A DNA stretch of 64,000 nucleotides, taken from IMG/VR virus record IMGVR_UViG_3300018080_000160; one strand, given 5' to 3'. A program made the position numbers and the translations under genes. The notes under the pieces were generated by a model. That model was not told where the DNA came from, searched no databases, and saw only the letters and a program-made list of their open reading frames with translations. Within the stretch, counting starts at the first letter, position 1; each line of letters begins with the position of its first letter. Origin of the DNA: an uncultured virus (IMG/VR IMGVR_UViG_3300018080_000160) (lineage: Duplodnaviria > Heunggongvirae > Uroviricota > Caudoviricetes). This document shows, one piece after another, positions 3,079 to 62,752 of the stretch.

Positions 3079-3567
3079 TTAAAATTCTAACCATCCATCC
3101 CAATCATTATAGACGATAGCCCAGCAATCACTATAACCTTGACGTATCGTTAGCGTGTTGGATTGACCGATTCCCATCCACGCTAATACAACAGCATCAT
3201 AAACGTAAGAGAATCGACCCGCATCTTCTGACATACTCATTGCGTTTGTTGCAAGCGCACCGTTCAGAAATAACGTGCTACATCCGCTGTTGGGGTTAAT
3301 GAGCGCGTCATCTTTAGAAGCTCTGTCAACAAGAACTGCTTTAACTCCTCCTGTTACTCCTCTCCAGTCCCAGACGTGATAGCCGAGGTTAATACAGTCG
3401 GTAATAAAGCTTTCAAGCGTTGACGAGTTCCCAACATTTTGTACGATTAGTAATGCGTAGTCCTCGCCTTTCCACTCCTCCGCACTGAGCTCACCACCAG
3501 TAGAGAGCTCCATTGAAGTGTGGCCATCTGGGTTTACCCACTCGAATCCTACTGCCATTCCTATCAC
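3079..3567 (-). CDS. hypothetical protein, tail-fibre associated
   Basis: 162-aa ORF overlapping the fibre stop codon. Confidence 0.65.
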   Translation of the reverse strand: MIGMAVGFEWVNPDGHTSMELSTGGELSAEEWKGEDYALLIVQNVGNSSTLESFITDCINLGYHVWDWRGVTGGVKAVLVDRASKDDALINPNSGCSTLFLNGALATNAMSMSEDAGRFSYVYDAVVLAWMGIGQSNTLTIRQGYSDCWAIVYNDWDGWLEF

Positions 3568-6500: not shown

Positions 6501-6866
6501 AACCTCCTCGAAAGTGAAGCCAACCCAATACACGTCAGCAGCAGTTGGTTCAGAACCACCGGGACTCCAATCTACATTTAGATTATCGCCATCTACCGAA
6601 ATAAGGTAGTCTGTAGTCTCGGTATAAGGTGCAGATCCATCGTGGTTATCCGAAACCCATGCTACGCTGAAGGAATCTTTCTTCCCGTTTGGGGTTAGGA
6701 GGTCTGTCCCTCCAGATACGGGGCCACGAATCATCCTTCTGACGAAGAAATTATCAGAAAGAATCTTATCTATATTCTCCCGAACCTGTTGAGTTTTATG
6801 GGTCTCTGGAAGGTTCGAAGTAATGTTATTTTTTCTAAGCACGAAATAATCTTCTGTCTCTACCAT
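3564..6866 (-). CDS. tail fibre / receptor-binding protein with LamG/ConA-like domain
   Basis: 1100 aa; trimeric neck-like motif NKITNLAAPTDPGDATNKDYVD; LamG-like GEWYHIYI..D..YVNG..GKLSDVRYY; position after baseplate genes. Confidence 0.8.
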   Translation of the reverse strand: MVETEDYFVLRKNNITSNLPETHKTQQVRENIDKILSDNFFVRRMIRGPVSGGTDLLTPNGKKDSFSVAWVSDNHDGSAPYTETTDYLISVDGDNLNVDWSPGGSEPTAADVYWVGFTFEEVQSDSEVEVTDVTDLVIDASVGFNPETDVRGEPSLQSGITTKWNPIFKEFKIGFNHIDDTPTSARRCNDSKIYNTVTKEVRDLIPRPLTHGFYGDGAHADSYAWYILRPDISEFQYKDDLANENKFLYDCANYTVSAPPDGGPIAFGTDYADWPIFLPGKILRLYVTVEGSNLTDLEVTVSNGRDSITDSPVTGVELEFDLVDQMVCHDLFTVRLQGIGGGTASVTSIAFRAEFYSTIALPTLEYGSQTFRFALGDHEATPDANLSVDVEYDLISVSLRTQMEIRYQQMLQTIEGLYRTKILNPNNANAHLGTDPTNYGYAWKKAFIETIVATTAEIDNLGANLNAGGNKITNLAAPTDPGDATNKDYVDFSSSKYGEHDRSVPEEVIEVGSGSIAWVTAFTAEAAPCQGVIVANWQHSCPSYHGGSTKMVIDGEDTPRSYNISTPAGTGWLDRVDAWPVEAGSTIEIQIKRSNTADPSNVKNIVFYLIPGPVSNVLMENITYLRPAPAFSYSMDGSLPGSPIGNYSFSKVGHKRYSSCASADEGDRFSCTGLSADSTSGLTSLGVMCWWSPQDFTDAHQALLVMGGVGSGARESFGIGIVGGAGSTSLRVIHTNGSGSDVPYTFEVGEWYHIYIRCDNTTYDVDCYVNGVLVDTVNIGGAINLGVNSSTIGYVQSDLSWGVRGKLSDVRYYRGYYFPAPDKDMLDEIISGFSPEHTEMVNLHSAIESRLTDLEATRLTEVAADLIYAQLVHTHTTAAITDFTSATEAIITAELADGESIDAAIDALISSHAGAADPHTGYLKESSLENPPTNVTDTAPQSAWAFAHMNNASAHWTGDQNAANKALLYLASIGINATTLPIYYGAKTTQPIAFIGYAGDSTSNRGGYIQAQSHSNQGTYIGLFKNKGALPGYPNDYYGVIKTDSATVYYATSAGYIGYRNDGLVVAQLASDLASIAIQVDATRGKVETSRNRMTFKINS

Positions 6867-25433: not shown

Positions 25434-25508
25434 TGGTGACACGGGGGGGAATCGAACCACCCGACCTGCCCTTATCAGGGACACGCTCTACCGCTGAGCT
25501 ACCGCGTC
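25434..25508 (-). tRNA. tRNA-Ile (GAT), CCA encoded
   Basis: GACGCGG-TA-GCTC-AGCGGTA-GAGC-G-TGTCC-CTGATAA-GGGCA-GGTCG-GGTGG-TTCGATT-CCCCC-CCGTGTC-A-CCA; one U.C mismatch in the T stem. Confidence 0.92.
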
Positions 25509-28885: not shown

Positions 28886-28928
28886 TGTGACACATTTGTG
28901 ACACATTTGTGACATAAGTAGAGTCACA
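28886..28928. promoter_or_regulatory. TGTGACACA motif cluster 3 (11-bp tandem)
   Basis: TGTGACACATT-TGTGACACATT-TGTGACATA plus GAGTCACA, in a divergent promoter region. Confidence 0.75.
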
Positions 28929-32776: not shown

Positions 32777-35700
32777 CTAATCCTTGGCGGTTTTCTTTGC
32801 ATCTTTCTTCTTAGATGCCTTCTTTTTCGCAGCCTTCTTCTTAGCTGCCTTCTTCTTAGCTGGTTTTGGTTTTGGAGGTTCCTTTTTTGGTTTTGGAGGT
32901 TCCTCTTTTTTGCCTCCAGTTAATTTTTCATATGTTCGTTGTAGAGCGGAGATCATACTCTGTGCGTCCTTCTTTTCTTTCGCGGTTGCTTCCGGGTCAT
33001 TTAATGTTTCGTTCCAATATTCTAAGTCATCCTCGATGTCTTCCGCTGTTTGTTCCTCGTCCTCATTAATGTCACCTTCTTTGAGATTGCCTGCACGACG
33101 TTCTAATTCCGCACCAATATCAGTAATAGCTTTGTTCTCCTCGTCGCTACGCTCAAGTAACTTCTTCCGTTTAAGTTCTTGGTTCATTTCCTCTAAATCT
33201 GAATCGCTAAAGTCTTTTATCGGCTTAGATTTTAATGCATCTGGAATGTTTTCGAGCATTCGTTGGTGAGCTTCAAGCTTCTCGTCCGCTTCTTCCTCTT
33301 CCATGGCATCTTTGAGCTTTCTTTCCAATGCGTTTCTTGACTTGGCAGTAGTCTTTATATCGTACTCTTCTTTCAAGATTTCTCGAATCTCATCATCAGA
33401 ATACTCTTTCATCTTCTTCTCGTGAGTTTCCCTCGCTTTTACCCTCTCTGCAGCAGAAGGCTCTTCCGGTTCTTCTGGTTTAGGAACTTCCTTCGGAGCT
33501 CTCTTCGGAGCTTTCTTAGGAGCTTTCTTGGGAGCTTTCTTGGGAGCTTTCTTGGGAGCTCTCTTCGGAGCTTTCTTAGGAGCTTTCTTAGGAGCTTTCT
33601 TGGGAGCTTTCTTGGGAGCTTTCTTGGGAGCTTTCTTGGCTGGGAGCTTGGTTTGCCCTTTCGGTGGTTTCTCTTCCTTCTTGGGGGCTTTAGTACCAAG
33701 TTTCTTTCCCAACATTCCTTCTACTTCCTTTAGTTTCTTCTGTAATGTCTCAGATTTCATCCGCTCGAAGTTACCACGCGGCTTCTTGACTCCTTTTGGA
33801 AGTTGACTAATCTTCTCCCGCAATGAAGCAGCAAGTTGCTGTTGTTGTTCTTTCTTCGAAATAGGCTTTCCTTCCAGCGTCTGCTGTGCTGGCGGTTTCT
33901 CTTCCTTCTCTCCAGAAACGAGATTGACCAAATCTGCTTTTCGTGTGACGTCTTTTGGAATGTCGATCTTGTTCTCATTTAGCCATTCCTTGATGGTAGA
34001 GACTGTCCAATCACGGGTATTCTCCGGTTTCTCGCCGGGGTATTTCGCTTCTTCCTCGGCAGCAGCTTCTTCAGTTGGCTCTGCACCTTTTTCTTCTGCC
34101 CATAGATCGGTTGGGAGACCTAACGATTCTCGCTCCTCTTTCCATTTTTCCATATCAAACCCGAGATTTTCTTCCGGATTGCTCAACAGCTTATCCATTT
34201 TACCGACATCTATTTTCTTGCCCTTGAAATCTTCGTAAGCTTTAGTTATGTCGAGGATATTCTGCTTCGGAAATTTCTTGCCACCTTTTTGTTCCGCTTG
34301 CAACTGGCGTTGCACGTATTTTGCAACCATCTCCTCGAACTTCATCCGAGATTGTTCGACATTCTTCGGGCCTTCAACTTTCTTGCGTCCTCTTTGTTTC
34401 GGTTTTCCTTCTCCGCGCATCTCTTCAGCTTCTTCCTCGGTAATCTCTTTCATTTCCATCGGAGTCTGGAATACCTTATCGAGCTTTAGATTTCCTTCTT
34501 CGTCGAAAACAGGATTGCCCTCGTCATCTCGTCTGACTGCTTTGCCAACCGGAACTTCGTACTCCTCTCCTCCTATCATTACTTTGTAAGGTTCAGGCTC
34601 CTCAGTCGTGTATAATTTGCCACCGCTTTCAACTTCTGCTTGAATGAGTTTTCCTTGCTCTGCTGCCTTCTGTAGGAGTTTCTGGATACTGGGCATCGTG
34701 TATTTCCCTTTTTCTCCTCGGACTTCCTTCCCACCTTCCATCTTCATACCCATCTGCTGTTCAACGACACCCTCAGCCAAATCACGAATCGAGTCACTAT
34801 GCGATGCAAACTCGTTTGCAACATTCGTAATCTCTTTCTCCATCATATCGTAAGCTTCTTGCACGTTCTCGAATTTTTCCTTCGTGCTTTCGACGAGACT
34901 ATTAATCTTCCCAGCAAGCTCATCGTCATACTCGATAACTACACCGGGACGAACAGTAGAGCTAAGCTCCGTGAACATTGCATCCATATCTTGACGGGCT
35001 TTGTCGATTATCTTACTGAAACCTGAAAGTCGATTATTGAGTCTGTCCATATTAAGTTCCATTTTATCCTGTGTCTTAACCGTCTCAACAAGCTGCTGGC
35101 CCACGCCAGTCATGTATTGGTCAAATTTTGATTGTATATTCTCTATCTGTGATTGATACTGCGAAGAAGCCCGTTCCGCGAGTGCTTTATGAGCTAACTC
35201 GCTTGTCCGTAACCGAGACACTTCTTCTTTTGCTCTCGATAACGCTTCAGCATATCTGAGTGCTGGGTGATTTTTAATATAGTCATTCCGAAGATCCTGC
35301 AAACCTGTAGGCGAAAATCTTCTATTTCTATTTAGATTTTTCTGCCACTTCTCGGTAAGCAAATCTATCATGTATTCCTGACGTTCGCTGAGTTTGTCCG
35401 GGTCTCCCTCGTATATCACATCAAACCCAACGAGTTTATTATTCTCGATGGTTGGAGTGAGAACTACCTTAGCCCCATCTACATTTATGACATACCATTC
35501 ATCACCAGAGCCAAGACGTTTGTAGATAGCAAACATACGAGCTTCTTTGGATAGGAGCGGCTTAGGAACAACTTTACCGTCTTTATTTAACCATTTAGTT
35601 CCTTTTCCATAAGTCCCCGGCTTTCTGGTAAGCCACTCACCGTTTTTCCCAATCGCAGTAACAGGTAAAGGTTTTAGATTAGCCTTAAATTTATCCCCAG

Positions 35701-43425: not shown

Positions 43426-44020
43426 ACTTCTCCCTAACGCTCAGCGTATTCCGACCACAACGAGGACATCGCAGACCACTCGGTTTGCGCACAATATTCA
43501 CGACGGATCTGTATTGGAACACACCACGCGATTTCTTGGAGATTTCTCGGTGAGAATCTACCAATTCCCTTAGATACCGTCCAACTCTATCGGTAGTATC
43601 TTTCACCTCAAACTTGTTCTCGTACAACGCACGAGCATGAGCAAGTGCAAGAATGCCATCTTTCTTGAGAATTCCGACAAGCCACTGCTTCACGCGACGG
43701 GCTGGGGCATTCTTTTTGGTGGGTCTGCGTTGGAGGTGGGGCACGGAAATGGTGTGTTCTTTTTCCGGCGCGGAGCCTTTTTCCTCTTTCTCTGGAATTT
43801 CTTTGGGCTGAGTTTCTACCGGAATCACCTCTGCAACGATTGACTGGAAAGTTACAGCAGATTCCAAGCGAGTAGCGAAACGCAAATACACTTTTATACG
43901 TTCAAAGATTTCGTCGTCGCTAATAGGCTTTCCCTTCGATAAGACCTTCACAATCTCAGCCACAACCTTCATCGTCTTCGGGTTGACGAAGAACACCATA
44001 GGGATTTTATCGCTTGACAT
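43361..44020 (-). CDS. putative DNA-binding protein (winged helix plus C-terminal Zn ribbon)
   Basis: RVGRYLRELV...I.KKSRGVFQY; CPRC...CENEDC. Confidence 0.6.
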   Translation of the reverse strand: MSSDKIPMVFFVNPKTMKVVAEIVKVLSKGKPISDDEIFERIKVYLRFATRLESAVTFQSIVAEVIPVETQPKEIPEKEEKGSAPEKEHTISVPHLQRRPTKKNAPARRVKQWLVGILKKDGILALAHARALYENKFEVKDTTDRVGRYLRELVDSHREISKKSRGVFQYRSVVNIVRKPSGLRCPRCGRNTLSVREKFVKGDIQFTRICENEDCDFSE

Positions 44021-45451: not shown

Positions 45452-45523
45452 TTATATAAATATGTTGTGTAATTGTTGTGGTGTCACATTTGTGACTCTC
45501 TTGTGTCACATTTGTGTCACATT
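45452..45523 (-). promoter_or_regulatory. TATA promoter with upstream TGTGACACA cluster 4
   Basis: Minus-strand TTTATATAA at ~45452-45460; motif copies at 45481, 45491, 45502, 45513. Confidence 0.7.
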
Positions 45524-45866: not shown

Positions 45867-46203
45867 ATGTATGCCATCGTGGTATAAGAAGGTTACGATA
45901 GTTTAGCCGGAGGTAGAGTGAAAAAACGCCCCGCGTATTTAGGAACCTGATGTCTCCGCCCCCCAAACCGCCGCCGATCTTTGGAGATCGACGGAAACTT
46001 CAGCCATCTCCGAATTTTTGGCCATTAAACTTAGATTCGGATGAATCTATGCATCTGAATCATACCAGCTTGATGGAAACTATAGGATCTCCATCCCAAA
46101 TGGTCCTGCGTGACCCCTATGGCGTCCTTTGGGACGTGGAGTCACGTCAATTCTATGGCCCAAATCTAAGTTAGAATCGACGTAGGGCTGATCTGCATTA
46201 GCA

Positions 46204-46940: not shown

Positions 46941-46994
46941 AATATAAGTATTTTGTGACACATGAAAAATAGGTTGTGTTACAAATGTGTCACA
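46941..46994 (-). promoter_or_regulatory. TATA promoter with TGTGACACA cluster 5
   Basis: Minus-strand CTTATATT adjacent to motif at 46954; further copies at 46975 and 46986. Confidence 0.7.
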
Positions 46995-47507: not shown

Positions 47508-47984
47508 ATGCTGGATGAAAACGAGTTAAAAACCCTAAAGGTCTTGAAAACTCGCACCAAAAACAACCCGCTTAGTGACCCATTGTTTAGGGCCACTGAT
47601 AAGTATATTCGGTCAACCCTATTAGAGGAACTTGAAAAACCGGAGAAAGAGGTAAAGGAGCTCGTAATACGTGCCTACCATAGGTATGTTTCAGATCCTA
47701 CTTGCATCCCACCAATAGTTAACACCCTTATTGATAATCCTCTACTCCAAGTTCAAGATACCTACGAAATCTTGGCCCAAATCCAAGATTCGGAGTCAAA
47801 TCTCGGTAAACACACGTCTATGGGCTTGCTCCACCTAACCAAAAAACTGATGAATTTCTTTAAACCTAAAATCCTCAAGGTTGACGTGTTTCTGATAGAC
47901 CTAATGCGCCAAGTTTACGGGAATAGGGCCGTCCTTAACGCAATATCGAATTTGAAGGCAAATCTAACTCAGAACAAAGATTAG
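47508..47984 (+). CDS. hypothetical helical protein
   Basis: 158 aa with GGAG SD, followed by U-tract. Confidence 0.7.
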   Translation: MLDENELKTLKVLKTRTKNNPLSDPLFRATDKYIRSTLLEELEKPEKEVKELVIRAYHRYVSDPTCIPPIVNTLIDNPLLQVQDTYEILAQIQDSESNLGKHTSMGLLHLTKKLMNFFKPKILKVDVFLIDLMRQVYGNRAVLNAISNLKANLTQNKD

Positions 47985-48152
47985 AGCCTTAGAACCGAGT
48001 ATCTCTAATCTCTCAATTCCTCTCTTTTTTTGTCCGAATCTCCCATTGGTCCTGCATAACTCCTTCTATCTCTCCAAATCTAAGTGTTGTAGCAGATTCG
48101 GAATAGATTTAGCCCAGAAAGGTGCTATACGAAAACCATTTCATTTTTAGAT

Positions 48153-48844: not shown

Positions 48845-49181
48845 TCTCCTCGCTTTGTTCGTCGAACCAATCGGGGATTTCGGATGTAATCCGTTCCTTG
48901 CCTATGATCTCGGTATAATCCCCAGATTGAAGTTTGGCTTCTACTTTCTGCCAAATCTCTTCGTGGGAGCAGGCAGTTACTCGAATCTGCCTATATACCT
49001 TGGCTACTACAAAGACGTCAAGCTCCTTGCTTTCGCCGTTTTTTTGACCGGGGGTTTCGTTGTTTGGCCCAACCCGATTATTCTCCTCTTCCGGGGTAGG
49101 CTCTTCTTCAGCCAATTGGCTGAAATACTTCCTAATGGCTTCCATAACAGCCATAATGGAAGGTTTCTTTTCCTTTGCCAT
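48825..49181 (-). CDS. acidic hypothetical protein
   Basis: Start MAKEKK with AGGAG SD. Confidence 0.7.
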   Translation of the reverse strand: MAKEKKPSIMAVMEAIRKYFSQLAEEEPTPEEENNRVGPNNETPGQKNGESKELDVFVVAKVYRQIRVTACSHEEIWQKVEAKLQSGDYTEIIGKERITSEIPDWFDEQSEEIDRDGK

Positions 49182-49215
49182 TTTTGTTTCTCCTTTTAGA
49201 TTTGTGCCCAATGAA

Positions 49216-49260
49216 GGGCTTTGGTTATCGTACTAAGCCCTTTCTCTATTGAAAGAGAAA
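49216..49260 (-). promoter_or_regulatory. structured intergenic element A
   Basis: TCTCT-TTCAAT-AGAGA then GGGCTT-AGTACGATAACCA-AAGCCC. Confidence 0.7.
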
Positions 49261-49300
49261 AAAAGGAGAGAAAAGAGATTGTTGGTTATTTTCCCCTAAT

Positions 49301-49474
49301 CTACTTCCATGAAAGGGGATTGATGAGATCGTAAAGCTCATCAATGATTGAGTAGCCTTCTTCTTCCAGATCGCCGATCTCAAAGTTTAGAGATCGGACG
49401 TCCAAGAGAAACATTTTGGCTTCAACGTGGCTCAATTTAATTTTTACTGATTTCTTCTTCATTTTTACCTTCAT
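49301..49474 (-). CDS. small hypothetical protein
   Basis: Start MKVKMK with GGTGA SD. Confidence 0.6.
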   Translation of the reverse strand: MKVKMKKKSVKIKLSHVEAKMFLLDVRSLNFEIGDLEEEGYSIIDELYDLINPLSWK

Positions 49475-49497
49475 TCTATTCACCTTTTCACCCAACT

Positions 49498-49543
49498 TTC
49501 GGGTTTGGTTTATGTATTAACCCGAATTCCGATTTGCACGGAA
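49498..49543 (-). promoter_or_regulatory. structured intergenic element B
   Basis: TTCCG-TGCAAAT-CGGAA then TTCGGGTT-AATACATAAACCA-AACCCGAA. Confidence 0.7.
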
Positions 49544-49601
49544 AATAAAAGAGAAAAAGGGGTGTTTGCTTCAGAACCAACAAATATTCCAAATCTCTCG
49601 G

Positions 49602-49754
49602 TTATGCGTCTAAACCGATAGATTCTTCCAGAATCTCATAAAAATCCAAGAGATTCTCCAAATATCTGTTGTGGACTTCCCAGCTCGCGTTTAAATCCAC
49701 AACATTAAGGATCTCTTGGAAGAGATCGTAACAATCTTTTTTATGCTTGTCCAT
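49602..49754 (-). CDS. micro-protein (50 aa)
   Basis: MDKHKKDCYDLFQEIL...GLDA*, AGGTGAG SD. Confidence 0.6.
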   Translation of the reverse strand: MDKHKKDCYDLFQEILNVVDLNASWEVHNRYLENLLDFYEILEESIGLDA

Positions 49755-49775
49755 CTAATTCTCACCTTAGATTTG

Positions 49776-49810
49776 CGCCCAAGGAAGGATTTGAGCCTTC
49801 TACTCGGACA
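49776..49810 (-). ncRNA. tRNA minihelix-like element (acceptor stem plus T arm)
   Basis: GTCCGAG-TA-GAAGG-CTCAAAT-CCTTC-CTTGGGC-G. Confidence 0.55.
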
Positions 49811-49842
49811 TAGTTAGATTTTGGTTAAAAAAAAGGGAGAGA

Positions 49843-50004
49843 TTAAAGTTTAGGGACATCTATTTCGGGGAAATTTTCGAGGAAAAGATCCCGAATTTCC
49901 TTCACTTTCCACCCAATCTTTTCATCCTCTTGGGTGTATTTGACCAATAGGGCTATGGCATTGCCCATAATGGTCGTAGCTCGTTGTATTCCTTCTATAT
50001 TCAT
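49843..50004 (-). CDS. micro-protein (53 aa)
   Basis: ATGA overlap; MNIEGIQRATTIMG...VPKL*. Confidence 0.55.
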   Translation of the reverse strand: MNIEGIQRATTIMGNAIALLVKYTQEDEKIGWKVKEIRDLFLENFPEIDVPKL

Positions 50005-50156
50005 TTTTCTTCATCTCTTTTTGTTTCTTTAGGTTTATTCTCGCTAAAAACCGTCGAAAAGGCTATCCATTGCCGGAATGAAGAGATTTGCTCGTTATCG
50101 CAAATCTCCTCAACCAGAAATGCGGGGAGATGGAAATTTTTGGTCGTTATTGGCAT
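50001..50156 (-). CDS. micro-protein (51 aa)
   Basis: AAGGAG SD; MPITTKNFHLPAF...DEEK*. Confidence 0.55.
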   Translation of the reverse strand: MPITTKNFHLPAFLVEEICDNEQISSFRQWIAFSTVFSENKPKETKRDEEK

Positions 50157-50311
50157 TTTGGTTTCTCCTTTGATAGATTTAGTTTTACTTCTTCTCGGAA
50201 GGGCCTAAGCCTTGCACGGAAAGGCGATATGCCAAATTCCTTAGTGCGCTTAGATTTGAAACCAAACTTGCTGAATCTAATACATACAACGAGAAAAAAG
50301 AAAAAAAAGAG

Positions 50312-50617
50312 TTAAAATGTAGTTTTACACTTGAAATAGTGTTTAAACGAATCCATGGGCATCAAAAATCTACCTTTGTGGCCCATTATCAATCCCCGTC
50401 TAACTATTGCGCGGGGAGGATTCGTATTAGGCTCTTTCAAGTGGAAAACGAGTATGGCTTTGTGGATATTACCGGAAAGCTGATCTGGTGTTTTCCCGAG
50501 ATTTGTAACTTGTCCGGTAAAAATATAGCAAGGTAGATCGGGTTTTCGCCCAATCCTCTTGCGGTATTCCCTCAGATCGTCGTGTAGTTTGAAGATCCCG
50601 TACATTGTGAAGCTCAT
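50312..50617 (-). CDS. hypothetical protein
   Basis: 101 aa, ATGA overlap with the vWA gene. Confidence 0.65.
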   Translation of the reverse strand: MSFTMYGIFKLHDDLREYRKRIGRKPDLPCYIFTGQVTNLGKTPDQLSGNIHKAILVFHLKEPNTNPPRAIVRRGLIMGHKGRFLMPMDSFKHYFKCKTTF

Positions 50618-52863
50618 TTCAAAGCTTCCGCCTTGTACCTATCAATAGCTCGCGCGATAAGCTTTTTCAGCTCATTAGTGACCCGATCTATCGACGTACT
50701 AACCTTCTCGTCTTTCCGGAAGAAGTTTCCGGTAAATCCGTTAAGGTCAAAGCCTTCAACCCCAACCAAATAGGGTTTTATAGGCTCACGTCGGAGATCA
50801 TTCATTATCGCACCAGATACTGTTGGATCTTGGTCTGCTGATTCCCCATCGGTTATTACGAAGAGCAGCCGGAGTTTCTCGGGACGTTTGCGCAGCTCGT
50901 TAACAACATGAGCCATAGCAGGCCACATAACGGTTCCACCAGATGTTAATCTGATAAAGGTATGGCGGAATGTATGGAAGGGTTCCTCAAAGCCTTTAAC
51001 CCGATAGAACAGATTCTCAAAGTTCCACATCCCAAATGGGATATTGGCTTTAGCAAGGGCACCTGCGATAACTCCGGCAAATTTCTCGCATGAATCTGTA
51101 TCCATGCTTCCGGAAACATCCGTTAACAACCCAACAGATAGATTTAATCTGCCGGATTTCGCCAATTGTTTCCCACTAAAGAGCTTGGTGGTGCTTGGGT
51201 TACTCTTGGCTTTCAACAGGCGTCGCATGTTGAGCTTTCCCGAGTTTTTTCTCCGGAGTCTTTCAGTCCCTTCACCAAGTTTTCTGTTGAAGAAATTCCC
51301 CAGATCCTCACTTTCTTTATCTATGTGAAGATCCCGTAGTCTTTGGCGCAATTCGGGGGAGTCTTCCCGTAATTGGGGAGTTCTACGCATGCTTCCCGAA
51401 CCAGAACCCGCACCCGCTCCCATAACTTGCCCTTTATTGCAGAGCTTCTTCAAATCTTGCTTAAGCTCTTGCAATTGGCCCTTGGTGAGTTTTTGGAGCA
51501 TCTCATTGTCACCAGCTTGTTCTTTCTGCTGGTTTATGAGCTTTCTTCTATTAATCCGCTTTACCTTGGGGGTTTTAGGCTTTCCATCCTTAGATTTGCC
51601 CCCTTTAGGCTTCCCGTCTTTGGGCTTTTTGGGATCTTTAGGATCTCCATTCCCTTTCCCGTTTTTGGGCTTTCCGGGGCCTTTGGGATCTTTACAATCT
51701 CCTTTAGGCTTCCCGTCTTTGGGCTTTCCGGGATGATCTTGCGGGTTACCGGGTTGATCTCCTTGATCTTGTGGGTTACCGGGTTGATCTCCTTGGGGGT
51801 TCCTTGGTGGTCCTGCTGGATCTCCCCCCTTAGGTGGGTCGGAAGGTGGATTCGACGGTCCTGATGGCCCCCTTGGGGGTTCCGGCTCAAGAGATTCCCC
51901 GGATTCGAGGAATTCTCTCAAGTAGGTCAAGCAATGTTCCGCATGCTCTACGATATCTGACATATTCGCGCCTTTCTTCATTAGATTTTTGCGCAAATAA
52001 TTTCCGGCATGGAGAATCTCCCGAATCGCTCGCTGGGAGAGCTGCTCTTCCAAAGGTTTGTCAAACATGATTCCTCCGGAGAGAGTCTGTTGTAACCAGC
52101 TCTCCCAGACCTTTTCCTCAAGATCGTCGATCTGGTCGATTTTTGGACGCTCAAGTAAATAACCTTTGTCCACGTCCTCGAACCGAGTAATGTAACCCGG
52201 CGAATCTTGATCTCCGAGGAAATTGGTTAATACATCGGATGCCAAATTCAATCCTAATGCAGCTTTCTCGGGGATCGTCGGGAATTTCCGCTGAATCTTA
52301 GCCATTTCTTCCAGATCAGCGGTTCCGTAAAGCACATGGTCTATCTCATGCTTGAAGATCCGTTCTATCCGATCTATGAGCAAACCGGGATTACTCCCGT
52401 AGATTCGTGCTTTTGTATCTACCGAGATCACGATTTGGTCGTTGTTGGTCGCCGAAAGCCCATTCCCGTTCTGGAATTTAACGGGAATCTTTGGGGCGTT
52501 ATACTTCTTCTTCCAAAATTCGAATAACTCAAGCACATCGAATTCTGGAAGTTTACGTTCCGCTAAACCGCCGTGTTTGGCGATTACGTCACGTACAATG
52601 TCCCAAGGGACGTTTCGGTATAATGCCTTCTTTGGCTTCTTCACCCATGTTGAATAGGGTTGAAGCAAAATCTCCTTCCGGCTCACGTTTCGTATTTCCA
52701 GCTCTTCCCATGGCCCTCTAAAATTCTGCGGCCTGCAAGCCGCATAGTCACCCACTTTGACCCGGAACATGAACCCGTCGTTACATTCGACGGATTTTAG
52801 TGGATCTCCGTAGGAATTCCTTGGAAGGCCCATAACAAGAGCTGAAAGCTCTTTTTTATTCAT
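50614..52863 (-). CDS. vWA-domain protein with HExxH metallopeptidase-like region and P/G/K-rich linker
   Basis: HEIDH; MIDAS DVSGS...GGT...ITDG; QGDQPGNPQD and KPKDGKPKG repeats. Confidence 0.9.
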   Translation of the reverse strand: MNKKELSALVMGLPRNSYGDPLKSVECNDGFMFRVKVGDYAACRPQNFRGPWEELEIRNVSRKEILLQPYSTWVKKPKKALYRNVPWDIVRDVIAKHGGLAERKLPEFDVLELFEFWKKKYNAPKIPVKFQNGNGLSATNNDQIVISVDTKARIYGSNPGLLIDRIERIFKHEIDHVLYGTADLEEMAKIQRKFPTIPEKAALGLNLASDVLTNFLGDQDSPGYITRFEDVDKGYLLERPKIDQIDDLEEKVWESWLQQTLSGGIMFDKPLEEQLSQRAIREILHAGNYLRKNLMKKGANMSDIVEHAEHCLTYLREFLESGESLEPEPPRGPSGPSNPPSDPPKGGDPAGPPRNPQGDQPGNPQDQGDQPGNPQDHPGKPKDGKPKGDCKDPKGPGKPKNGKGNGDPKDPKKPKDGKPKGGKSKDGKPKTPKVKRINRRKLINQQKEQAGDNEMLQKLTKGQLQELKQDLKKLCNKGQVMGAGAGSGSGSMRRTPQLREDSPELRQRLRDLHIDKESEDLGNFFNRKLGEGTERLRRKNSGKLNMRRLLKAKSNPSTTKLFSGKQLAKSGRLNLSVGLLTDVSGSMDTDSCEKFAGVIAGALAKANIPFGMWNFENLFYRVKGFEEPFHTFRHTFIRLTSGGTVMWPAMAHVVNELRKRPEKLRLLFVITDGESADQDPTVSGAIMNDLRREPIKPYLVGVEGFDLNGFTGNFFRKDEKVSTSIDRVTNELKKLIARAIDRYKAEALK

Positions 52864-52889
52864 AGCTTTCTTCTCCTTATTGGTTTTTT

Positions 52890-52955
52890 GCGTCTCATGG
52901 AGATTTAAACCCCATTAGCCACTTATCAGGCTTCTCCTTTGCGGAGTAGAGACGT
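52890..52955 (-). ncRNA. degenerate tRNA-like cloverleaf in the 5' leader of the vWA gene
   Basis: CGTCTC-TA-CTCC-GCAAA-GGAG-A-AGCC-TGATAAGT-GGCT-A-ATGGGG-TTTAAAT-CTCCAT-GAGACG-C. Confidence 0.65.
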
Positions 52956-53010
52956 TGGTTAAAAATAAGAGAGAAAAAGAGTTTTTGAATCCAAGAGCTA
53001 ATCTCGGATT

Positions 53011-53160
53011 CTAATGGCTAAAAGCCATATCTACATCATTCCTTTCTGCCAAAATGTTGTAGACTTCCTTGGCTTTCGCCCAATCGCTTTCATCTTGCGA
53101 AAGCTCAAAGGCCATAGCCATACCGATTAGATCGGCTGAATCTCTATCTTCATAGTTCAT
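53011..53160 (-). CDS. acidic micro-protein (49 aa)
   Basis: AAGGAG SD; MNYEDRDSADLIG...AFSH*. Confidence 0.6.
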   Translation of the reverse strand: MNYEDRDSADLIGMAMAFELSQDESDWAKAKEVYNILAERNDVDMAFSH

Positions 53161-53191
53161 TTTGCTTTTCTCCTTTGTTATTCACCCAAAT

Positions 53192-53236
53192 TTCGGGTTT
53201 GGTTTAGATTTGAACCCGAATCTCTATTGAAAGAGA
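53192..53236 (-). promoter_or_regulatory. structured intergenic element C
   Basis: TCTCT-TTCAAT-AGAGA then TTCGGGTT-CAAATCTAAACCA-AACCCGAA. Confidence 0.7.
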
Positions 53237-53263
53237 AAAAAGGAGAGAAAAAGACTTTGGTGC

Positions 53264-53482
53264 TTAGAAAACGATAGGATCTCGAAATTTTAGAGCATCT
53301 TGAACGTTACGTTCACATGCCCATGTAAAATCAGTATATTCATCCCACTTGATGAAAGTGGTCACGTACTGATTCGAGATGGTAAATCCATCCCGATTTA
53401 CAGTTACTTTCATCCCATCTCTAAGTTCAACGTACACTTCCCCAAATTCAATCTCTAGCTTGAAGTATTTTTTATTTTCCAT
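53264..53482 (-). CDS. small hypothetical protein
   Basis: Start MENKKY with GGGTGA SD. Confidence 0.6.
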   Translation of the reverse strand: MENKKYFKLEIEFGEVYVELRDGMKVTVNRDGFTISNQYVTTFIKWDEYTDFTWACERNVQDALKFRDPIVF

Positions 53483-53501
53483 AGTATTTTCACCCATATT
53501 A

Positions 53502-53545
53502 GGGCTTTGGTTTATGTGCTAAGCCCATTTCGGATTTGAACCGAA
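53502..53545 (-). promoter_or_regulatory. structured intergenic element D
   Basis: TTCGG-TTCAAAT-CCGAA then GGGCTT-AGCACATAAACCA-AAGCCC. Confidence 0.7.
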
Positions 53546-53581
53546 AAAATAAAAAGAAAAAAGGGTGTGTGAGCTTTAGGC

Positions 53582-55402
53582 TCACTTTTCGCTGATCTCG
53601 ATAAGGGGGGAGTTAATTACATCCCCATCCTCTTTTCGCTCGGAAATAACGAGCTGGTTAATTTCCTGCTCGTAACAATCAGGCGAGAAGAATCTCTCGA
53701 AAAATTCCTTTACATGTTTCGAGATTAGGGACATCTCCTCACTATCATGCTCGGATGTTCGATTCTGGGCAAACGTGGTGACGTTTTTGTCCACAAGGTC
53801 ACCCAATTTGAACTTCCATCTCTTACCGAGAATATCCCATGCGAGCTCGCCTAATTGACGCATGCACGGGATTGAAGCTTTGGTTGTGCTTTCCGGAAGC
53901 TTAGCCCATACTTCTCGGAAGGCTGAAGCCAAAGCCCACGCACCACGTTCACTGAATCCCAGCTCTCGGTTATTTCTGAGAGAGATTTTGAACTTGGCAC
54001 GTAGGTAGTCTGCGATCTGGTCCTGAGTCGGGATTGGGAAACGAATCCATCTCCAGCGAGTAGCGACCGAATCAGATGGATCTACACCAAGAGGTAGACC
54101 ATCCGGGTTAAGTGAAGAGAGAATTATCGCGGATTCGACGGGAGAAACCACTTTTCGGTTCCAAACTTCCGGTTTATACGTGCCTTCCATTAGTTCTTTA
54201 ACCGTTGGTTTCTCTTTCAACCAAAGGGTGAGCTCTTGGAAGATCGTATTAAGAGCCTTCAAACTATCGTCGATCTCCTTAATTTCCTCAATCTGCAAGA
54301 GAGTTAACCCTTGAGTCGCGGCTAAATGGACAAATTGGGCTATATCTCCCGCTAATTTGATGGTCGCATTGTTTCGGAAGCCGTCGCTCACCTGAAAGTC
54401 CATTGCTTCATCAGACCTTGAGGGAGCAATGGTAAAGGCGTCTTTCCCCGGAGTTAATCCCAGAATCTTCATTAACACTTCCCCAAGGAAAGATTTACCG
54501 GTTCCCGGCTCCCCGGCAAGCATTATGCATGCTGGGATGCCACGATTCATTCGTTCTGCAATGGCTTTGATTGTTTCTTTGCCCTTGCCCATGTAGTCTT
54601 TGAATCCGTACGACCAGAGGTCGGAAGTGAATTGAGCATCCAGAATTTCCGCTGAATCATATACAGCGGTAAACTCCTTCTCCGATTCGGCCACCATAAA
54701 GCATGCGTCGACGTATCTGTATGCTTCAAGGTAATTCCCGAGAGATAGCGATCTAAGGGTCGCCTGCAAGATCGGATTGTTAGTTTCATCCAATTGGGCG
54801 ATCTCTTCAATCTCCTCGATGGTTCCGGGGATGTCGCTTAATGCCTGCATAAGGGAATAATTTCCGTCTTTCATCTCTTCCCTTTTTTTGGCCTTTTTCT
54901 CCCGTTCCTCAGCTTCTTTCTCAAGGCGCAAAGCTTCCTCAGATTGGAAGTTTGCCCATTTCTGATTGATCTCCTCGAACTTCCTTTGTTTCTGGGCGAT
55001 TTGCTCCTTGGAAAGCTTCCCACCAAACTTCTCTTGGAGAGAAAGCATAGCCTTGGTGTATTCCTCAAGGCTTGTTATAGATAGCTCGTTAGTTTTCTCG
55101 GAATTAGGGCTTTCGGGTTCCTTGGTGGTCGTTTTCTCGGGATTGAGGAAATATACGGAAGATCCATGCTTTCCCTCTTTCAAGACCAATTCTTTGGCTC
55201 TAAGTCCGTTTAGGGCATTGGAGATGTTGTAATTCTCCACGTCAGCCCTATCGAACCCAGTTTTTCCCCAATGCTTGTCAAAATCGCGGATTTCGTCTTG
55301 AATATCCGCCCATGGTGATCTCGGATGAGATCGTAAAAAATCCATGGCGATTTTGGTAGCTACGTCTTTCAGGGATGGTTGTTTGTTGTTTGTATCTGCC
55401 AT
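53582..55402 (-). CDS. MoxR/dynein-like AAA+ ATPase with extended N-terminus
   Basis: MLAGEPGTGKS; Walker B LLQIEEI; SSLNP; TRW arginine finger; near the vWA gene. Confidence 0.85.
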   Translation of the reverse strand: MADTNNKQPSLKDVATKIAMDFLRSHPRSPWADIQDEIRDFDKHWGKTGFDRADVENYNISNALNGLRAKELVLKEGKHGSSVYFLNPEKTTTKEPESPNSEKTNELSITSLEEYTKAMLSLQEKFGGKLSKEQIAQKQRKFEEINQKWANFQSEEALRLEKEAEEREKKAKKREEMKDGNYSLMQALSDIPGTIEEIEEIAQLDETNNPILQATLRSLSLGNYLEAYRYVDACFMVAESEKEFTAVYDSAEILDAQFTSDLWSYGFKDYMGKGKETIKAIAERMNRGIPACIMLAGEPGTGKSFLGEVLMKILGLTPGKDAFTIAPSRSDEAMDFQVSDGFRNNATIKLAGDIAQFVHLAATQGLTLLQIEEIKEIDDSLKALNTIFQELTLWLKEKPTVKELMEGTYKPEVWNRKVVSPVESAIILSSLNPDGLPLGVDPSDSVATRWRWIRFPIPTQDQIADYLRAKFKISLRNNRELGFSERGAWALASAFREVWAKLPESTTKASIPCMRQLGELAWDILGKRWKFKLGDLVDKNVTTFAQNRTSEHDSEEMSLISKHVKEFFERFFSPDCYEQEINQLVISERKEDGDVINSPLIEISEK

Positions 55403-55510
55403 TTTTGTTCACCCGCTAACGGGGTTGATGGTTAGAGCATTATTTCTTTGCTCTTCTCTTCCCTTTCTCATTTGAGAAAGAAGAGAGAAGAAAAAAGAAA
55501 AAAGAAAATA

Positions 55511-55849
55511 TTACTGGTAGAGCCTTTTTAGAGCGATCTCCCACGCCTGCCCTTCTTCCCCGGCTCGCGGAGGAACATGCTTGGGCATATCAATCAGTTC
55601 CGAGCTTGGTTCATAATCCTCAACAATCTCAGTGAGATTGTCAATCATTTCAACAAGCTCCGGCTCGATATTGTGTAACCCATGCCCAGATTCTGCTTCA
55701 ACCAAAATCCGAGCGATCTCCAGCTCGTGGGAAGCCTCTAAGAGGGCTTCCAAGACGACCCGTCTTAGACGCAAGACGGGAGCATTCTCAATGGTACAAT
55801 TCTTCACTAACAGCTCATTAATGCTGTTTTCGTTGTTGTTTTCTGCCAT
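55511..55849 (-). CDS. acidic hypothetical protein, first gene of the accessory array
   Basis: 112 aa; shares GAACAAAAATGGCAGA start context with the AAA gene. Confidence 0.7.
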   Translation of the reverse strand: MAENNNENSINELLVKNCTIENAPVLRLRRVVLEALLEASHELEIARILVEAESGHGLHNIEPELVEMIDNLTEIVEDYEPSSELIDMPKHVPPRAGEEGQAWEIALKRLYQ

Positions 55850-55972: not shown

Positions 55973-56889
55973 TATGGCCTTTTTGCTTGCCCATAGCGAA
56001 AGATTGGATGAATACTATAGTCAACAAAGAGGGATCTCAGCCCTATTCTCCCGAATTTCGTGAATCTTTCCCCAATTTAAACTGCATAGACGTGGAATTG
56101 AGGAAATAACACTTTTCGTCTATACAGCTTTCCATTAGATACAGCCTATTTCCATCCCAATATTCCCTTTCCGTGCATAACTGGAAGAGCAGCATAGATT
56201 TCTACGGAAAGTGACTAAAAATCTAATGGGAAAGCCTTCTAAAGTCCACCAAATCGAGATAAAAAATTCAAGGCGATAATTTCAGATCACAATGTGAAGA
56301 GAATCGAGTAAAATCTGTTTTTGTTATCAGTTTTCCCCAAATCTAATGTATCTCTCAGGACCAATACGCAGTATAAATACTGGTAGATTTGGGTTTTTGG
56401 GAGAGTTCTATGGTCAATTTCCTGTACCAAGATTTGTTAGTTTAGCCGGGGAAAGATTCTGGTTAAATTGACTAAAGCATTGCCGGGGATCTCGAATGAG
56501 CATTATGAATTCTATAGAATCAAGCATAGAATCTATAGATTCCCGGCTAAACTGAAATTTAGGTGATCTATAGTGAGATCATACCTTTTTGTCTTAGCAC
56601 AACCCGTTTAGACTTAGATTTGGGGGGTTTTGGGCGAGTTTGGTCAAATTGGTAGTAGATTTCCGGTATTTGGGCGAGAATCTAAGCGCAAAGTGGCTAA
56701 AAAGTGCCTAAAAATAAGATGTCGCTCCACAGGACCGGAAAAGTCCTTTTTGTGAGCCTAAACATTAGATTTGGAGATTTGGGAAAGTGGTATAATCGAC
56801 CATTAGATTCGGCAGAGCAGAACGGCGGCAGAAAAACCCGGTTTTTAGGCGAAGCTAATTTTCCCGCGCTGGGGACTTTCCAAAAAGTA

Positions 56890-57369
56890 AAACATCTTCG
56901 GAGCTCATTATTCTGCAGAATAGATTCATCAGTTATGCCTCCCGGCAAGCGTAGTTAATTTAATCTTTGTGTGCCGCACGGAAAAAATGAAACATCTTCG
57001 GAGCTCTCGTCTCGGTTTTTGGCAGACAGTTGCCCCAATAGGAGGTAAAAATCGATCTCTGTTATATGCCGTTTTTCGGCGAGATAGCAGACGACAAAAT
57101 CGAAACATCTTCGGAGCTATTTTTCTGAACATTGTTTTAATCTTTGAGCGTATCTATGTTCAGTTTGCACCAGTAAAGAATGGGCCAAATGAACATTGTT
57201 TAGGATGAAAGAAAAAAGAGATAGGAGCCAAAGAGTTAGCGAGGTTTGGGGGTGACCGAAACGGGCACGGGAGGGTATATACAAAGGAGAAACTTTGCAA
57301 AATGTGAAGGGGGGAGGTAGAAATAATCCCGCTTACACCCTGTCCAATCGACAAACATCTTCGGAGCTC
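56890..57369 (+). repeat. four direct repeats AAACATCTTCGGAGCT
   Basis: Copies at 56890, 56990, 57103, 57353; a 15-bp copy also at 61303. Confidence 0.9.
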
Positions 57370-57774
57370 CTAATATAGTTCCTCTATTGTTTCTAATTCC
57401 TCTTCATCGAGATAGAGGAAACTTAGGATTGGGTACTCCACACCGTCTATTTCCTCCGCTTGTTTCGTGCTAACAGCACGGAAAATTGATATATCATAAT
57501 CGCCCATATTAGACGCGGTAGCGACTTTTGAAACGATATTATTATCCAGATCGAATACTACAAGAGAAATCTTCTTCCCTCGTCGAGCTTCAAATATTCT
57601 ATCGTTCACGCGATTGAATTCCTCTATTTTCCAGATGTTTAAGTTTCGGATCTGCTCCGCAAAGTAATCGTCGTCTTGTTCTCTCAGGAAGTCAATGATC
57701 ATACGTTTGATGTCTTTAGAGCGGTAGAACCCAACGCCGGATGGATAACGCGCCCAGAATTGCACATTCGTCAT
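57370..57774 (-). CDS. hypothetical protein
   Basis: 134 aa, AAGGAG SD. Confidence 0.7.
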   Translation of the reverse strand: MTNVQFWARYPSGVGFYRSKDIKRMIIDFLREQDDDYFAEQIRNLNIWKIEEFNRVNDRIFEARRGKKISLVVFDLDNNIVSKVATASNMGDYDISIFRAVSTKQAEEIDGVEYPILSFLYLDEEELETIEELY

Positions 57775-62707: not shown

Positions 62708-62752
62708 TGTGTCACAACCGTGTGTCACATTTGTGACACAAAAGGTTTTAAT
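62708..62752. promoter_or_regulatory. TGTGACACA cluster 6 with BRE/TATA-like element
   Basis: TGTGTCACA at 62708; inverted repeat TGTGTCACA-TT-TGTGACACA at 62721-62740; then AAAGG-TTTTAAT. Confidence 0.75.

Follow-up and report, generated by a model that had tools for sequence, protein, structure and literature searches.

What does a tRNA-shaped element do in the leader of a phage protein gene? The question is raised by a 64,000-nt stretch of DNA from an uncultured virus of the Caudoviricetes (IMG/VR record IMGVR_UViG_3300018080_000160), referred to here as the window, in which the minus-strand segment 52955-52890 can be drawn as a miniature cloverleaf shortly ahead of a gene for a vWA protein. 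An earlier note, made from the letters alone, had proposed its arms. We predict a stable, closed cloverleaf that is not a decoding tRNA and tentatively read it as a processing signal for tRNA-maturing enzymes; a structured leader that stays uncut is about equally likely.

Folding of the 66-mer with ViennaRNA yielded a closed four-way junction of 64 nt (minus strand, 52954-52891) as both the predicted minimum free energy (MFE) structure and the centroid. From 52955 to 52890 the strand reads ACGUCUC UA CUCC-GCAAA-GGAG A AGCC-UGAUAAGU-GGCU A AUGGGG-UUUAAAU-CUCCAU GAGACG C. The structure has a predicted energy of -25.8 kcal/mol and accounts for 70% of the ensemble; its z-score is -4.03, and none of 200 dinucleotide shuffles was equally stable. 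All 20 stem pairs are intact, one of them being G-U. The plus strand folds more weakly (-20.4 kcal/mol; z-score -3.15) because G-U pairs turn into A-C. The T-like stem directly adjoins the 3' strand of the acceptor-like stem with zero spacer, and the two stack to 6+6 = 12 bp, the total that the earlier note had given. On the minus strand, the MFE and centroid structure contains every arm listed there, and the observation of the cloverleaf is confirmed.

The cloverleaf lies in the 147-nt gap between a 49-aa open reading frame (ORF; 53160-53011) and a 749-aa ORF (52863-50614), both on the minus strand. Its placement before the vWA gene was likewise correct: it is intergenic, on the sense strand and 27 nt ahead of the ATG of the 749-aa gene. 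There is no ORF of at least 40 aa that overlaps it, and all long ORFs of the window are on the minus strand. When the full 147-nt leader was folded, the cloverleaf persisted with pair probabilities of about 0.9 or above; the leader as a whole has a z-score of -5.15, again with none of 200 shuffles equally stable. In the predicted ensemble the cloverleaf is nested inside a 14-bp helix (52978-52964/52881-52868; pair probabilities about 0.8-0.99) between an upstream pyrimidine (CU) tract and the Shine-Dalgarno (SD) region, an anti-SD/SD clamp from which it is set off by two 9-nt single strands. Prediction of sigma-70-like promoters on the minus strand between 52500 and 53600 returned none, which fits read-through transcription from upstream. 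As part of the explanation that we put forward tentatively, the cloverleaf may truly form in the RNA and act in cis, within a polycistronic transcript of the phage.

Departures from tRNA and likeness to the phage tRNA-Ile

The element had been judged not to be a decoding tRNA, and our searches bear this out. ARAGORN in default mode called only the tRNA-Ile(GAU) at 25508-25434 in the 64-kb window and did not call the element, nor was it among the 32 calls at -ps80. The Rfam tRNA model RF00005 gave no match to the element at the gathering score, nor at E<=10 on 501 nt, nor on 86 nt; at the gathering score the tRNA-Ile is the sole match in the window. Rfam models of cis-regulatory RNAs, riboswitches and ribozymes returned only chance-level matches, the best at E 0.26 and all far under their gathering scores. 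Nor do the arm lengths suit a decoder. A canonical tRNA has an acceptor of 7 bp, an anticodon stem of 5 bp that carries a 7-nt loop, at least 4 nt in the variable region and a T stem of 5 bp; in the element the acceptor has 6 bp, the anticodon-like stem 4 bp and its loop 8 nt, the variable region 1 nt and the T-like stem 6 bp. The canonical elbow nucleotides (G18 G19; U54 U55 C56) are not kept, the D-like loop being GCAAA and the T-like loop UUUAAAU. The missing tRNA marks had been described accurately: the D-like loop is without GG, the T-like loop has UUU rather than UUC, and an adjacent CCA is absent, the nearest CCA being 7 nt downstream. A tRNA feature that is retained is the four-way junction with its 12-bp acceptor/T stack. 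Speculatively, an A-U pair in place of G19-C56, using the U that stands for C56 and the A's in the D-like loop, might preserve the elbow.

ARAGORN in an organellar mode had been suggested as a check. In metazoan-mitochondrial mode the program does call the element, as c[52890,52954] mtRNA-Ile(gat), but its drawing puts two A-G mismatches into the anticodon stem and shows a D-replacement loop; the same mode yields 16 calls in the 64 kb, and 617 at -ps90. We dropped this call as evidence for a tRNA.

The string that the earlier note saw in both the element and the tRNA-Ile is the 9-mer CCTGATAAG, which occurs twice in the window when both strands are searched, in the element loop and in the tRNA anticodon loop only. 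About 2% of random 75-nt windows have some 9-mer in common with the element, a figure that counts windows overlapping the element and the tRNA-Ile, so that the match is only suggestive. Outside the 9-mer, the stems of the two have nothing in common. The element and the tRNA share the cloverleaf shape, the UA after the acceptor stem, the 12-bp acceptor/T stack and the 9-mer CCUGAUAAG in the middle loop, as well as an intergenic layout of CU tract upstream, folded domain, and A-rich spacer and SD downstream; the tRNA stands 21 nt after the preceding gene and 23 nt ahead of the next. They differ in length (64 versus 75 nt), acceptor stem (6 versus 7 bp) and anticodon stem (4 versus 5 bp). Unlike the tRNA, the element has the 8-nt loop, the 1-nt variable region and the 6-bp T stem, is without the D-loop GG and the CCA, has UUU for UUC, and is missed by ARAGORN and Rfam. 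We regard it as a shrunken, tRNA-like and non-decoding element, possibly descended from a tRNA-Ile-type cassette.

Such a descent leaves room for a decayed tRNA gene, a relic of the cassette with no present function. A relic would account for the 9-mer in common with the anticodon loop, the UA at the 8-9 position, the similar flanks and the reading as Ile(gat) in mitochondrial mode. We nevertheless consider it improbable, because neutral decay that erased the stem sequences would be expected to disrupt pairing and loop match as well, whereas all of the stem pairs are intact (one G-U) despite sharing no sequence with the tRNA.

The earlier note had also raised a decoy for anticodon nucleases or isoleucyl-tRNA synthetase, for which we see no support beyond the shared 9-mer. 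Such a decoy would be one form of a trans-acting mimic, an RNA of roughly 65 nt that would be released and be CCA-tailed, be aminoacylated or act as a decoy for one of these enzymes or for a tRNA-modifying enzyme. The loop does bear CUGAUAA, the anticodon-loop sequence of tRNA-Ile(GAU), and the 12-bp stack is present. In the MFE structure, however, the loop has 8 nt on a 4-bp stem, and GAU can be brought into the anticodon position only at the cost of two A-G mismatches; the anticodon limb is about 2 bp short, the GG/UUC elbow and the CCA are lacking, and one copy, placed in the leader of an mRNA, would hardly supply a decoy in abundance. A trans-acting mimic therefore appears very improbable.

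Processing signal, uncut leader or chance

The element retains the features that are measured by tRNA end-processing enzymes: a closed acceptor-like stem contiguous with a T-like arm whose 7-nt loop is closed by a G-C pair. RNase P gauges a fixed distance along the stack of T-stem-loop and acceptor from the elbow (PMC4919913). In plant mitochondria, non-canonical tRNA-like t-elements guide RNase P/Z to cut at mRNA ends (PMC1920247), and bacterial RNase P cuts some phage and operon RNAs (PMC11143913). In the window, the tRNA-Ile, which must be excised from its transcript by the host tRNA-processing enzymes, occupies the same kind of slot as the cloverleaf. Given this slot, the retained acceptor/T stack and the precedents of t-elements and RNase P substrates, we favour a tRNA-like RNase P/Z processing signal of the t-element kind, whose cutting may free the ribosome site.

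In such a scheme host RNase P would cut 5' of C52954 and a 3' tRNA-processing activity would cut near C52890. The cuts would detach the vWA message from the upstream RNA and would also part the pyrimidine tract from the SD region, leaving a leader that is short, A-rich, unstructured and translatable. The interpretation in the earlier note is upheld in part; of the roles listed there, a processing signal and a regulatory leader would fit this model. We infer transcription through the site, cleavage and the translational effect from the observed fold, its stability and position, the look-alikes and the predicted clamp; because all three steps are inferred, our confidence in the processing signal is low.

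The layout of the vWA leader recurs in the window. Flanking CU:SD pairing is predicted in five of six folded intergenic regions (the vWA leader, 49.8k, tRNA-Ile, 53.2k and 49.25k, the sixth being 50.2k), enclosing a minihelix at 49.8k and two hairpins each at 53.2k and 49.25k; around the tRNA-Ile it is weaker (CCCCU/GAGGG). Pure pyrimidine runs of at least 12 nt are rare on the sense strand, with 20 in all, of which 12 fall in a crude intergenic set that includes the vWA leader and the tRNA spacer. A scan for T-arm-like hairpins (a stem of 5 bp or longer whose closing G and C flank a 7-nt loop with at most one mismatch to UUCAAAU) found four, each of them intergenic and on the minus strand (200 shuffles: mean 0.43, maximum 3). 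The T-like arm of the cloverleaf is one of them and scores 23 bits (E 0.0045) with covariance model R1, which was built from the four hairpins and thus trained on it. No further strong member was found in the window with this model, the next best being a plus-strand site at 47770-47788 (E 0.08). The hairpin at 53546-53528 is, besides the tRNA-Ile, the only exact match in the window to GGTTCRANYCC, the conserved pseudo-uridine-arm motif by which t-elements were found (PMC1920247). The minihelix at 49809-49777, whose outer stem encloses the hairpin at 49800-49784, is likewise nested between a CU tract and an SD; over 25 nt, its 5' flank and that of the vWA leader (CU tract plus UAACCAA; family D17) show 84% identity. 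Coordinates are collected in Table 1.

Table 1. Positions of the cloverleaf, its arms and related features in the window
Feature	Positions	Strand	Basis
Whole cloverleaf: 6-bp acceptor-like stem, UA, D-like, anticodon-like and T-like arms	52891..52954	minus	MFE and centroid structure; only descriptor match in real window
Acceptor-like stem CGUCUC/GAGACG, 6 bp	52954-52949 / 52896-52891	minus	sequence and fold
UA linker	52948-52947	minus	sequence and fold
D-like arm CUCC-GCAAA-GGAG, 4 bp, 5-nt loop, no GG	52946-52934	minus	sequence and fold
Anticodon-like arm AGCC-UGAUAAGU-GGCU, 4 bp, 8-nt loop; holds most of 9-mer CCUGAUAAG	52932-52917	minus	fold and 9-mer search
T-like arm AUGGGG-UUUAAAU-CUCCAU, 6 bp, one G-U, 7-nt loop closed by G-C	52915-52897	minus	fold and hairpin scans
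Pyrimidine (CU) tract, anti-SD strand of predicted 14-bp helix	52964..52978	minus	leader folds; list of sense pyrimidine runs
Purine-rich strand AAUAAGGAGAAGAA, including SD AAGGAG (52878-52873), predicted partner of CU tract	52868..52881	minus	leader folds
Upstream 9-bp hairpin AAUCCGAGA-UUAGC-UCUUGGAUU, directly after stop codon of 49-aa ORF	52988..53010	minus	leader fold
Downstream gene, 749-aa protein with HExxH and vWA/MIDAS; ATG 52863-52861	50614..52863	minus	Pfam and homologue alignment
Genuine tRNA-Ile(GAU), encoded CCA, between two genes; CU tract upstream, ACCAAAAAC and SD downstream	25434..25508	minus	ARAGORN; Rfam 57.9 bits
T-arm-like hairpin UUUCGG-UUCAAAU-CCGAAA	53528..53546	minus	hairpin scan; exact GGTTCRANYCC
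T-arm-like hairpin GAAGG-CUCAAAU-CCUUC	49800-49784	minus	hairpin scan
T-arm-like hairpin UUCCG-UGCAAAU-CGGAA	49527..49543	minus	hairpin scan; model R1
Possible paralogue: 7-bp outer stem, UA bulge and 5-bp T-like arm, 12 bp stacked	49777..49809	minus	folds

Several results weigh against a processing signal. The Rfam tRNA model does not match the element even when only 86 nt are searched, the D-like loop without GG makes a normal elbow doubtful, and an adjacent CCA is absent. No close homologues from which covariation could be read were found in the collections searched. The element itself (GGTTTAAATCT, loop UUUAAAU) departs from GGTTCRANYCC at two positions; the 17 sites that match it with one mismatch or none do not include the element. 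GGNNYAAATC is over-represented generally (20 versus 5.2), in coding sequence too and on both strands, so that the loop may bear a motif that has nothing to do with mimicry of a tRNA. Bulged minihelices of 11-13 bp occur fairly often, at 11 distinct places in the window versus 4.8 in shuffles, and the 7+5-bp minihelix at 49809-49777 was dropped as independent statistical support because generic ones are common. Paralogy between the T-like arms of the vWA and 49.8k leaders is uncertain, since MAFFT pairs the arms differently and sets that of the cloverleaf against another CAAAUCU motif of the 49.8k leader; the case for clean paralogy is weakened accordingly. CU:SD complementarity follows nearly automatically from composition, which makes the pairing itself weak evidence; the recurring order of CU tract, folded domain and SD is the stronger point. 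Finally, the descriptors of the cloverleaf and of the hairpin family were both composed after the element had been seen.

The last point bears on whether the fold has any selected role at all, and here the evidence is mixed. With a descriptor of at least 6 bp for the acceptor, 4 bp for the D-like and anticodon-like stems and 5 bp for the T-like stem, with a 7-nt loop and the T-like stem abutting the acceptor, the real window gave one match, the element. Dinucleotide shuffles (n = 170) gave 53 matches, with at least one in 42 of them, so that the geometry alone is expected in about one window of four; an initial set of 12 shuffles, with one match, had underestimated this. Also compatible with a chance fold are the 16 calls of ARAGORN in mitochondrial mode, the frequency of about 2% at which random 75-nt windows share a 9-mer with the element, and the fact that every supporting pattern was noticed post hoc. 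Yet the sense-strand intergenic space makes up about 6.1 kb of the 128 kb searched, which lowers the descriptor expectation at such a position to about 0.015. In addition, the z-scores of -4.03 and -5.15 for element and leader were not attained by any of 200 shuffles in either case, the 66-nt window of the element ranks 205 among 42,624 sliding windows by folding energy, and the T-like arm belongs to a four-member hairpin family, a number reached by none of 200 shuffles. On balance, we consider chance unlikely as the whole explanation.

An uncut leader has to be taken as seriously as the processing signal, both being possible and about equally likely. Here the cloverleaf would be a compact self-closing spacer that joins the pyrimidine tract and the SD in a clamp or attenuator, or its T-like hairpin would be bound by a phage or host RNA-binding protein, and the tRNA-like shape would be incidental. 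The CU:SD helix is predicted with high probability around inserts as varied as two hairpins, a minihelix, a tRNA and the cloverleaf, so that any closed domain seems to serve. In the four T-arm-like hairpins the loops agree and the stems differ, with four of five pairs changed on both sides, and a constant loop on varying stems is typical of protein-binding hairpins; the over-representation of GGNNYAAATC also speaks for this reading. That count of stem covariation is circular, however, because the hairpins were chosen for pairing, and we identified no candidate binding protein. Nor does an uncut leader explain the 9-mer in common with the tRNA-Ile or the three extra arms that form a tRNA-like junction, and the CU tract of the vWA leader begins 32 nt past the upstream stop codon, a distance at which a ribosome terminating there could not unwind it. 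Two other readings of the leader were dropped: a lambda-nut-like boxA/boxB arrangement, of which there are too many copies for nut sites, and an RNase III site, the clamp helix being only 14 bp.

Motif counts could also be taken to indicate a signal in the DNA, a promoter element or a cruciform, rather than in the RNA. Motifs that contain CAAATC are over-represented on both strands, and the related D1 repeats can, in our own reading, be taken for promoters with TTCAAA and CATAAA 18 bp apart. In the vWA leader, however, a start site downstream of TTTAAA-N18 would land in or after the SD, the sense strand is the one that folds better, with its G-U pairs, and no sigma-70-like site is predicted on the minus strand (52500-53600). 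A DNA-level signal is thus highly unlikely.

If the processing signal is taken further, graded tRNA mimics (the tRNA-Ile, the cloverleaf, the acceptor/T minihelix and the T-arm hairpins), each between an anti-SD tract and an SD, would punctuate the messages of this phage, with host cutting both separating cistrons and activating translation. We regard this extension as improbable, though not negligible. Such logic is known from organelles and from some eukaryotic or viral transcripts; in open-access papers and bioRxiv we found no description of tRNA-look-alike punctuation in phage mRNA leaders. If true, it would be a bacterial-virus counterpart of mitochondrial tRNA punctuation, with RNase P as a translational activator. 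Were the vWA element cut by tRNA-processing enzymes, the phage would divide and activate polycistronic messages via miniature tRNA look-alikes, and the requirements of RNase P and RNase Z could be defined on a minimal substrate from nature, 64 nt long, with a stack of 6+6 bp and an altered elbow. If its role goes no further than that of a stable spacer within the anti-SD/SD clamp, it represents ordinary translational tuning. Either way the weight of the case is limited by a single genome without relatives and by supporting patterns that were seen post hoc.

Downstream gene, relatives and other repeats

The 749-aa protein has a weak Pfam VWA match (E 0.0015, below the cut-off). Its alignment with 12 distant homologues revealed an invariant HExxH (H172 E173 H176) and the MIDAS residues D582, S584 and S586. 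An N-terminal stretch of ~90 residues (about 20-110) matches very many stand-alone proteins of ~100 aa at E about 1e-10 to 1e-5; it is a small domain, here fused to HExxH and vWA modules. Within the gene, tandem 45/54-nt repeats at 51602-51734 (families D4, D5 and D16) are likely to code for a repetitive linker. Upstream of the vWA gene is an AAA+ ATPase gene, itself preceded, at 55403-55510, by a 35-nt pure pyrimidine run and a long near-perfect hairpin; folding of 118 nt there (55398-55515) gave -35 kcal/mol. The contig resembles that of a phage, with genes for a baseplate wedge, a major head protein, a large terminase (TerL) and a clamp loader. The one sequencing run listed as containing the window is a DNA run labelled sediment metagenome and may be the source sample; its contigs placed on 49000-54000 were short fragments only and left the element uncovered.

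Searches for relatives were largely negative. No match to 52000-54000 was found by blastn against phage records, no confirmed relative of the vWA protein, TerL or the clamp loader in viral_contigs, and no exact 30-mer or 25-mer of the element in viral_contigs and metagenome_contigs; a degenerate pattern of the D1 repeat gave no match in viral_contigs. In word-indexed protein searches the vWA and AAA proteins matched only themselves, and the best relative of the clamp loader (61% identity) came from a 1,749-bp contig; its alignment (A4) retrieved no relatives from metagenome_contigs and genome_contigs. The best relative found by HMMER with the vWA protein is 25% identical (E 6e-28). At six distant vWA loci (L001-L006) identity is 22-25% over the longer matches, L001 showing 57% over a 35-residue segment; the 220 nt upstream of each contained no comparable leader or cloverleaf in six of six, at a distance too great to count either way.

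A 73-nt intergenic repeat with 74-78% identity is found at 49487-49559, 53181-53253 and 53489-53561, and near 49212-49290 there is a fourth, looser copy. The repeat begins with a CU tract, followed by a small hairpin that is either T-arm-like or UCUCU-UUCAAU-AGAGA, by a second hairpin and by UUGGGUGAA. The second hairpin has 6-8 bp and a 13-nt loop ending in AUAAACCA; its stem covaries (GGGCUU/AAGCCC versus CGGGUU/AACCCG), and its 3' strand can pair alternatively with the following GGG(U/C), which suggests a switch. The repeat could be a promoter or an RNA regulator.

The 9-mer CAAATCTAA, whose reverse complement includes TAGATTTG, occurs 16 times in the window, where 1.0 is expected and 100 shuffles reached 4 at most; the cloverleaf does not contain it. 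Examples are found on the minus strand (49196-49204, 49767-49775, 50250-50258, 53204-53212 and 56614-56622) and on the plus strand (46161-46169, 47959-47967 and 48075-48083), in intergenic and coding sequence and with little conserved context; it might serve as a promoter element or as a binding motif in DNA or RNA. Inside a 1100-aa tail-fibre-like gene (3564-6866) it forms a perfect inverted pair at 5708-5755, TTAGATTTG - 30 bp - CAAATCTAA. Palindromes of the type TGTGTCACAAATGTGACACA lie in large intergenic regions (45479-45521, 46974-46994, 28890-28915 and about 62710-62740); they are operator-like and perhaps mark real promoter or regulatory regions. AAACATCTTCGGAGCT occurs four times at 56890-57374 with a spacing of 100-250 nt (family D7). 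The most stable 66-nt folds of the window are long near-perfect hairpins on the plus strand, at 43714-43785 (-34.6 kcal/mol) and 33496-33609 (about -30 kcal/mol).

Comparison with known systems

tRNA-like folds that serve solely as RNase P/Z signals within longer transcripts are known from the mascRNA of MALAT1 and the TMER units of murine gammaherpesvirus 68. Unlike the phage element, these belong to eukaryotic or animal-virus systems, and they have no sequence relation to it. In the thrS operator of E. coli, an anticodon-arm mimic in the mRNA leader binds threonyl-tRNA synthetase. There, as is only proposed for the phage element, a tRNA-like piece beside the SD exerts translational control in cis. 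The thrS gene encodes the cognate synthetase and follows a feedback logic, whereas the gene downstream here encodes a vWA/HExxH protein with no known tie to tRNA-Ile.

Y-RNA-like YrlA RNAs of bacteria and phages carry a tRNA-like module that is a tRNA mimic and not a tRNA (PMC4201824); in this they resemble the element, which differs in having no Rfam match to any such family. Closer in setting are the non-tRNA substrates of bacterial RNase P listed in excerpts of PMC11143913, namely the precursor of the C4 antisense RNA of phages P1/P7, the M3 RNA of phi80, the T4 gene 32 mRNA and polycistronic operon mRNAs. These too are phage or operon RNAs, cut through their likeness to the acceptor/T domain. 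The same excerpts mention neither a full miniature cloverleaf in a phage mRNA leader nor the unmasking of an SD, and cleavage in the present case is hypothetical.

The nearest parallel to the processing signal that we favour is provided by the plant mitochondrial t-elements. The phage element differs from them in belonging to a phage in a bacterial host, in not keeping GGTTCRANYCC (two mismatches) and in being nested in a predicted anti-SD/SD helix. In the mitochondria and, as proposed, in the phage, a non-canonical cloverleaf with a T-arm-like hairpin stands in a transcript beside a protein gene; in both, true tRNAs of the same genome occupy equivalent positions, and the job proposed for it is that of marking mRNA ends (PMC1920247).

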